Shown one piece after another: positions 2,507 to 2,550 of a stretch of 64,000 nucleotides of DNA (positions are counted from its first letter, which is position 1; each line of letters begins with the position of its first letter). The stretch is from the sequence record OP557969.1, one strand, 5' to 3'. The position numbers and the translations under genes are program-made. The DNA is from Escherichia phage ph0011. Under the pieces are notes generated by a model that saw only the letters and a program-made list of their open reading frames with translations, did not search any database and was not told the origin of the DNA.

Positions 2507-2550
2507 GCACCTCTAAATAATGTATATAAACATTAATGAGGTGCTTTTTT
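2507..2550 (+). promoter_or_regulatory. RBS-sequestering hairpin upstream of gp13-like gene
   Basis: 7-bp inverted repeat GCACCTC...GAGGTGC around a 24-nt AT-rich loop containing TATATAAAC, then T6 and ATG 2551; right arm is the Shine-Dalgarno. Confidence 0.4.

Follow-up and report, generated by a model that had tools for sequence, protein, structure and literature searches.

In Escherichia phage ph0011 (sequence record OP557969.1), the ribosome-binding site of the neck protein gene is paired in a hairpin whose 5′ strand carries a late promoter motif of the T4 type, and we propose that the two together form a translational lock that would be released when late transcription starts inside the hairpin. 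The element lies at 2506–2545 on the + strand of a 64,000-nt stretch of this genome, referred to here as the window, which has a GC content of 35%. The phage is an Asteriusvirus-type (121Q/PBECO4/RaK2-like) jumbo phage with UE-S1 (94.8% identity) and TH47 as its nearest records. Considered as one cassette, namely a Shine-Dalgarno lock with a late promoter within it and, in this phage, a partial terminator, this reading is in our judgement the probable one. The regulated gene (2551–3342, + strand) encodes a protein of 263 amino acids (aa) that matches the head-tail adaptor Ad2 family (PHROG 211, E = 9e-42) and the gp13 neck chains in the PDB (E = 2e-4), while its orthologs in 121Q, GAP32 and CBB carry the annotation neck protein. 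These matches support the gp13-like label that an earlier note on this DNA, made from the sequence alone, had given to the gene.

The base of the hairpin is formed by the left arm GCACCTC (2507–2513) and the right arm GAGGTGC (2538–2544). This inverted repeat, the segment TATATAAAC between its arms, the T6 run and the ATG all lie where the earlier note had placed them, and folding bears out the pairing of the Shine-Dalgarno within a structure larger than the 7-bp repeat recorded there. The lower stem comprises 8 base pairs (bp), five of them G-C, between AGCACCUC (2506–2513, + strand), which is the anti-Shine-Dalgarno strand, and GAGGUGCU (2538–2545, + strand), which holds the Shine-Dalgarno GAGGUG (2538–2543). 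A 4x2 internal loop connects it to an upper hairpin (2518–2535, + strand), in which UAAUGU (2518–2523) and ACAUUA (2530–2535) form 6 bp around a 6-nt apical loop, AUAUAA (2524–2529). The arms of the lower stem are separated by 24 nt, and the two-part, interrupted helix amounts to 14 bp in all. It is the structure of both the minimum free energy (MFE) and the centroid fold and is kept in both when the hairpin is folded within a 141-nt read-through context. The folding energy calculation, which the earlier note had suggested as a check, gives −17.0 kcal/mol compared with −5.97 ± 2.23 kcal/mol for 200 dinucleotide shuffles, none of which is as stable (z = −4.95), and ranks the hairpin in the top 0.44% among all 50-nt windows on both strands. 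Taken alone this stability is notable, but neither extreme nor unique. The hairpin goes beyond chance because it is conserved with compensatory change and because it overlaps exactly with the Shine-Dalgarno and the promoter motif. No Rfam family matched at its gathering score anywhere in the window, and the sole result of a local E-value search, a miRNA-precursor family on the opposite strand at 23 bits against a gathering score of 90, is meaningless.

Conservation supports the structure. The orthologous region was taken from 20 relatives, with 12 orthologs entering the alignment. All enterobacterial RaK2-like lineages have a hairpin of −17 to −25.8 kcal/mol that pairs the neck Shine-Dalgarno, and the bearers, Asteriusvirus, Alcyoneusvirus, Mimasvirus together with Eneladusvirus, the 7t3/fENko-Kae01 group, Hallingskeid and EJP2, make up at least six lineages. 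Asteriusvirus and Alcyoneusvirus share the 5′ arm GCACCTC and the 3′ arm GAGGTGC. The corresponding arms read (A)CCCCTAAATATG and CATGTTTAGGGG(T) in Mimasvirus and Eneladusvirus, where the helix is continuous over 12–14 bp, GCACCCCTAT and ATAGGGGTGC in 7t3 and fENko-Kae01, and AGCACCTCTAAA and TTTAGAGGTGCT in Hallingskeid. EJP2 has GCATCTCT and AGAGGTGC with one G-U pair, and an unrelated upper stem, AGTAAC/GTTACT; in 7t3 as well the upper stem is of other sequence with its pairing retained. In an alignment anchored on the structure, with the 5′ strand held ungapped at TAAATA and N in place of gaps, 92% of the cells of the 18-pair helix are paired, against 33–53% with slid partners, although this percentage is inflated by the placing of each 3′ strand according to the sequence's own MFE fold. 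Changes on both sides, which are independent of how the 3′ strand was placed, occur at 9 of the 18 pairs (28 cells). Among 500 shuffles none reaches the paired fraction, the number of cells changed on both sides or the covariation score, and a single one reaches nine pairs. A plain MAFFT alignment was dropped, as in it the 3′ arms were shifted by one column for Mimasvirus/Eneladusvirus and for 7t3.

Two observations indicate at what level the hairpin acts and to which gene it belongs. G-U pairs are present in EJP2 and in Mimasvirus/Eneladusvirus, which indicates that it is RNA of the sense strand that folds. When the DNA is compared with distant genera, homology starts exactly at the hairpin base (~2505–2510) and the sequence upstream diverges, and the hairpin is therefore part of the neck-gene module rather than of the upstream gene. 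In the more distant relatives Atu_ph07, PA5oct and Phosso no comparable hairpin was found at the neck gene, so that the lock appears confined to the enterobacterial clade; all three have TAAATA 24–32 nt before the neck ATG. Xoo-sp13 and RsoM2USA were left out of the comparison since their neck homolog is encoded within a larger open reading frame (ORF).

The promoter box is TCTAAATA (2512–2519, + strand), with the core CTAAATA at 2513–2519. It spans the end of the hairpin 5′ arm and the internal loop and agrees with the T4 late promoter TATAAATA in 7 of 8 letters. In 12/12 aligned orthologs TAAATA is invariant, with C or A before it, including those lineages that leave it unpaired in the internal loop, and the 7t3 and fENko-Kae01 orthologs have the exact TATAAATA in its place. 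In T4, the box of a late promoter is 8 bp long and stands roughly one turn of the helix before the start, and after it comes an AT-rich stretch that is melted (PMC2988020). Here the box is followed by AATGTATATAAAC, likewise AT-rich, and when 18 sites from the window are aligned they are A-rich at 5–7 nt after the motif and show no conserved upstream (−35) element. CTAAATA and the ATG are 31 nt apart in this phage and 29–37 nt apart in the hairpin-bearing relatives.

The positional behaviour of the motif across the window is that of a positioned signal. With gene starts counted for ORFs of 50 aa or more, 17 of 21 [AC]TAAATA sites stand 16–87 nt (median ~35) upstream of a same-strand Shine-Dalgarno and ATG, compared with a chance share of about 3% that is our own estimate rather than the output of a tool. 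These sites precede the neck, the tail sheath and other large structural ORFs, and the interspersed macro-domain, Pth-like, HNH and dNMP-kinase genes have no such site before them. The 13 ATAAATA sites lie without exception on the coding strand, 12 of them just upstream of a gene start. The motifs are also depleted, with one occurrence of TATAAATA against 10.5 expected and eight of CTAAATA against 17.4 expected, and depletion and placement together are consistent with selection against stray late promoters. TTAAATA was rejected as a further variant and left uncounted, its sites being mostly intragenic and only 3 of 26 well placed. Late promoters also occur back to back: ATAAATA at 37094–37100 (− strand) and at 37129–37135 (+ strand) form a divergent pair that serves genes starting at 37057 (−) and 37167 (+).

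Published work on the clade agrees with this assignment. The CBB genome paper predicts ATAAATA, a motif resembling that of T4 late promoters, at 35 sites in front of structural genes, and its Table S7 lists Porf_201, CTAAATATGATATA, as the predicted promoter of the neck ortholog CBB_201 (PMC5259590); Porf_201 corresponds to 2513–2526 of the window. The same paper reports a gp55-like sigma factor, CBB_244, and no homologs of the T4 co-activators gp33 and gp45 (PMC5259590). Homologs of CBB_244, which matches cyanophage gp55 and has no match in Pfam, are found in 32 Escherichia phage records, with 74% identity in ECO103 4-12-1, an Asteriusvirus-type phage that also has a match to the neck region; within the 64-kb window there is no match to this sigma factor. 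The RNA-seq and ONT-cappable-seq papers on PA5oct give no late-promoter motif or start site for the clade, and the RaK2 genome paper does not discuss promoters.

The arrangement suggests a mechanism. In RNA entering from upstream, the interrupted 14-bp helix would pair the Shine-Dalgarno GAGGUG with the anti-Shine-Dalgarno and ribosome loading would be blocked. A gp55-like late sigma factor would direct RNA polymerase to TCTAAATA on the helix 5′ strand, with transcription predicted to start ~6 nt downstream of the box, near 2524–2526 in the apical loop, because of both the T4 box-to-start rule and the A-rich positions 5–7 nt after the box. The resulting late mRNA would have a leader of ~26 nt that does not contain the anti-Shine-Dalgarno strand and would hence be translatable. 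U6 directly 3′ of the helix means that the helix may also terminate part of the incoming transcription. Folding predictions are in line with these steps. The neck Shine-Dalgarno is essentially fully paired in the read-through RNA and has an unpaired probability of 0.40 in the predicted late RNA, the latter value being 0.40–0.68 across the window/Asteriusvirus, RaK2, EJP2, Hallingskeid and 7t3 and 0.24–0.38 in Mimasvirus and Eneladusvirus. The late-RNA leader is no more structured than its shuffles (z = +0.26). The predicted late start falls inside the hairpin, with the same geometry, in all hairpin-bearing lineages compared. An equivalent mechanism is established in T4, where early and middle read-through transcripts of e, soc, 49 and I-TevI, and also of segB and Aeh1 mobE, are silent and late transcripts are translated; there the TATAAATA-type late promoter lies in the DNA of the helix 5′ strand, and late transcripts lack that strand (PMC3014915; PMC2988022). 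The proposal in the earlier note that the hairpin acts as a brake on translation, relieved by transcription starting within it, thus receives good support from the comparative evidence and would, by analogy, match the mechanism described for T4. In a separate observation on the distant relatives, the predicted accessibility of the neck Shine-Dalgarno is 0.14 in read-through RNA and 0.62 in RNA begun 6 nt after TAAATA for PA5oct, and 0.03 and 0.60 respectively for Phosso, values from modelled folds which hint at non-homologous locks at the neck gene of these two phages.

Several points weigh against the mechanism as drawn. The start site is an extrapolation from the T4 rule, and the 0.40 predicted for the late RNA would leave the Shine-Dalgarno only partly accessible. 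The nature of the incoming transcripts is a further point. The genes upstream on the same strand, here and in RaK2/GAP32, encode a CCA-adding enzyme, NudE, glutaredoxin, a macro/Tk.4 protein and a Pth-like protein, all of them non-structural, and this set would fit the T4 pattern of a late gene behind non-late genes, with the timing class of the upstream genes inferred from annotations alone. No early or middle promoter was detected near 1–2500 when TTGACA-N-TATAAT and the CBB TGAAAC-type motif were scanned. The terminator component of the cassette also has to contend with the loss of the U-tract in RaK2, Muenster, Hallingskeid and EJP2, with a simple terminator scan (loop rule 3–8 nt) that did not list the hairpin, and with the list of ARNold terminators by the CBB authors, which does not include the orthologous hairpin.

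Folding of the other late-promoter regions in the window reveals two sister cassettes. That of the tail sheath gene (6378–6458, + strand; −23.9 kcal/mol, z = −7.35) has a 5′ strand at 6378–6402 with the anti-Shine-Dalgarno CCUUC (6389–6393) and the late promoter ATAAATA (6395–6401), and a 3′ strand at 6434–6458 that takes in UUGGAGGAUU, the Shine-Dalgarno GGAGG (6442–6446) and the AUG at 6454. Its initiation region has an unpaired probability of 0.09 in read-through RNA against 0.46 in late RNA, and the cassette is conserved in RaK2, GAP32 and 7t3. The second (750–806, + strand; −17.1 kcal/mol, z = −5.14) precedes an 80-aa ORF with its ATG at 804, a homolog of RaK2 ORF034. Here CCUAAAU (750–756), overlapping the late promoter CTAAATA (751–757), pairs with AUUUGGG (787–793), which overlaps the Shine-Dalgarno GGGAG, around an inner 9-bp hairpin (761–782). 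The design is the same in GAP32, and in RaK2 the stem is compensated as AUCCU/AGGAU. Like the neck gene, both genes come after non-structural ones. The other 14 late-promoter regions in the window have weak folds of −9.5 kcal/mol or weaker, and some of them follow canonical terminators, as at 9124–9145 (gene 9507) and 10213–10234 (gene 10286). Comparison of locked with weak-fold late promoters thus suggests that locks appear where a late gene directly follows non-late genes. We tentatively extend this to a systematic, clade-wide insulator cassette, with the late promoter in the 5′ strand of a two-part helix and the Shine-Dalgarno in the 3′ strand, conserved in at least six lineages, a generalisation in which our confidence falls a little below even. 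If correct, promoter, translational lock and, in some lineages, terminator would be compressed into ~50–80 nt. The T4 lock would then be an ancient and general way to organise a mosaic early/late gene order in T4-related phages, and no peculiarity of a few accessory T4 genes.

The case for the hairpin as a terminator as well varies between lineages. Of 51 gene starts in the window, that of the neck gene alone has a T-run of at least five in the spacer between Shine-Dalgarno and ATG, while the other spacers are A-rich. The T6 run (2545–2550, + strand), a candidate intrinsic-terminator U-tract for upstream transcripts, therefore looks selected. In orthologs the tract is missing from RaK2 and Muenster (GAGGTGCTATATG) and is reduced to UU in Hallingskeid, UUU in EJP2 and U4 in 7t3, and in Mimasvirus and Eneladusvirus the hairpin is followed by A and then U5–7. 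From these sequences, it is plausible that incoming transcripts are terminated in Asteriusvirus and also in Mimasvirus and Eneladusvirus, and for this phage we put the odds at about even. Since the hairpin persists in RaK2, Muenster, Hallingskeid and EJP2, none of which has a usable U-tract, we regard termination as a secondary, lineage-specific addition rather than a conserved function. The terminator for upstream transcripts envisaged in the earlier note is accordingly plausible for this phage, where U6 is unique among gene starts, and does not carry over to those orthologs that retain the hairpin alone.

The alternative that survives best takes termination further and treats the element as a plain Rho-independent terminator of the upstream unit, with the overlap with the ribosome site incidental and the neck promoter elsewhere. 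Such a terminator would explain a GC-rich lower stem followed by U6 and placed 6 nt after a stop codon, as well as a T-run that is atypical of spacers in this genome, and canonical terminators are indeed used elsewhere in the window. It would not explain why the hairpin is conserved where the U-tract is not, why it stays with the neck gene behind differing upstream genes, or why an invariant promoter box lies inside it. The ortholog is missing from the terminator list for CBB, and the tail sheath and ORF-804 cassettes have no U-tract after the stem in the window. We consider a plain terminator unlikely.

The position of the promoter within the hairpin is a point at which our reading departs from the earlier note, which had seen a late-promoter-like sequence in the loop. 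If TATATAAAC in the apical region (2523–2531) were the promoter, the start of transcription would lie further on, within or beyond the right arm. In favour of this alternative are the AT-rich, TATA-like composition of the segment and the match of TATAAACA to T4 TATAAATA at 7/8 positions. However, the loop is not conserved, reading AGTAAAC in EJP2, ATATACAAA in Mimasvirus/Eneladusvirus and GATAA in 7t3, whereas CTAAATA at 2513–2519 is the invariant element, and the motif that is positionally enriched in the genome requires TAAATA. A start ~6 nt after TATAAACA would fall at ~2538 and put the Shine-Dalgarno at the extreme 5′ end of the RNA, while the 31-nt gap between CTAAATA and the ATG matches the genome-wide mode of ~29–37 nt. 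A promoter in the loop is therefore highly improbable, and we take TATATAAAC to be the AT-rich stretch behind the box in which the DNA would melt and transcription begin, and not the promoter box itself.

A role tied to the upstream ORF deserves equally little credence. Either ribosomes terminating on that ORF would melt the stem and go on to the neck gene, by translational coupling, or the helix would be an RNase III site or a stability element that defines mRNA ends. The hairpin starts 6 nt after the stop codon (2498–2500) of the ORF in the window, a short distance that would suit coupling, and the upstream RNA, ending in a stable hairpin, would be shielded from exonucleases. But the ORF itself is doubtful. 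It has a TTG start (2282), is 72 aa long and equals 121Q gene 547, is not called in UE-S1 and matches no PHROG or Pfam family. JNE01, Turkey5 and RaK2 do not have it, and in these phages the preceding stop codon stands at a distance of 15–17 nt. For RNase III, 14 interrupted bp are fewer than in typical substrates, and neither coupling nor processing explains the invariant promoter box. The ORF is the only one in a segment of ~215 bp (~2290–2505) between the Pth-like gene and the hairpin, which occurs in 121Q-type phages only and is absent in JNE01, Turkey5, A4 and RaK2. Just upstream of the hairpin, TATAAT is found at 2486–2491, and in 121Q and UE-S1 the same site is TGTATAAT, an extended −10 element.

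Least credible is that the inverted repeat acts at the DNA level, either as the operator of a dimeric regulator or by extruding a hairpin that aids promoter opening. The repeat does bracket the promoter, and with no gp33/gp45 homologs found by the CBB authors the late promoters of the clade would have to be activated in some other way. However, the arms change yet stay complementary, several pairs are G-U and would be A-C mismatches in the opposite strand, the 3′ arm is under constraint as a Shine-Dalgarno, and the ~31 nt (6403–6433) between the paired strands at the tail sheath are unfavourable for a cruciform.

The comparison with relatives also bears on where the neck gene begins. The ATG at 2551 has GAGG 9 nt before it and opens a conserved N-terminus. 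In 121Q the annotation (L002, 841–1647) begins the gene at the in-frame ATG at 2536, 15 nt further upstream and within the hairpin. This upstream ATG has no Shine-Dalgarno, and in the orthologs from Mimasvirus and Eneladusvirus it does not share the reading frame of the gene. On this comparison the true start is 2551 and the start annotated in 121Q is probably wrong. Directly 3′ of the neck gene is a gene for a 664-aa HNH/homing endonuclease (3369–5363, + strand), which is present at this place in UE-S1, TH47, RaK2 and Muenster and absent from it in 121Q-type phages, GAP32, CBB and 7t3. This gene is probably a mobile insertion of a free-standing homing endonuclease, common to several genera. 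Elsewhere in the window, a near-perfect sigma-70 promoter (17635–17663, + strand; TTGACA, 17 nt, TGATATAAT) is the only strong promoter of host type found. It lies in a 300-bp gap (17622–17922) with no convincing ORF and could be the promoter of a small RNA or of the gene at 17923.

Our results suggest a rule by which jumbo phages may keep structural proteins strictly late although the structural genes are interleaved with metabolic ones, namely the placement of the promoter inside the anti-Shine-Dalgarno helix. The paradigm known from T4 e/soc/I-TevI would thereby come to include core virion genes, in a branch of the T4-related phages distant from T4. They correct the annotation of the neck gene, with the start at 2551 and CTAAATA as the late promoter, and the clear covariation makes the hairpin a good candidate for an RNA family model. 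The value of these observations is mainly in annotation, comparative phage gene regulation and gene-order mosaicism.

Set beside known systems, the element resembles a Rho-independent terminator in its GC-rich stem base followed by U6 just after a stop codon. It differs in the 24 nt between its arms, which fold only as a two-part stem, in a U-tract that is unconserved in orthologs and in a 3′ arm that doubles as the ribosome-binding site of the next gene. As a promoter it is the site orthologous to 'Promoter 3' of CBB/GAP32 (Buttimer et al. 2017, PMC5259590), although that paper describes a linear motif only, without the hairpin, the pairing of the Shine-Dalgarno or the recurrence at the tail sheath and ORF034. 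It is like the T4-type late promoter in the 7/8 match of TCTAAATA, the AT-rich sequence downstream, the lack of need for a −35 element, the short fixed distance before structural genes and the gp55-like sigma factor encoded in the clade, and is unlike it in that the first two box positions are relaxed, with A or C at position 2, and in that gp33/gp45 are reported missing in CBB. The closest likeness is to the T4 locks. As there, the Shine-Dalgarno would be sequestered on transcripts started upstream, the promoter lies in the 5′ strand and the regulated gene is downstream of same-strand genes that, judged by their annotations, are probably non-late. In contrast, the locks described here occur in RaK2/121Q-like jumbo phages at core structural genes, the neck and the tail sheath, whereas those of T4 serve genes of lysis (e, lysozyme), decoration and endonuclease. 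The box is [AC]TAAATA rather than the strict TATAAATA of T4, and the helix is in two parts with an inner nucleating hairpin and, in this phage, is fused to U6. The comparison makes a well-supported case that the known strategy of T4 e, soc, 49 and I-TevI operates in a new group of phages, by a mechanism that is not conceptually new.

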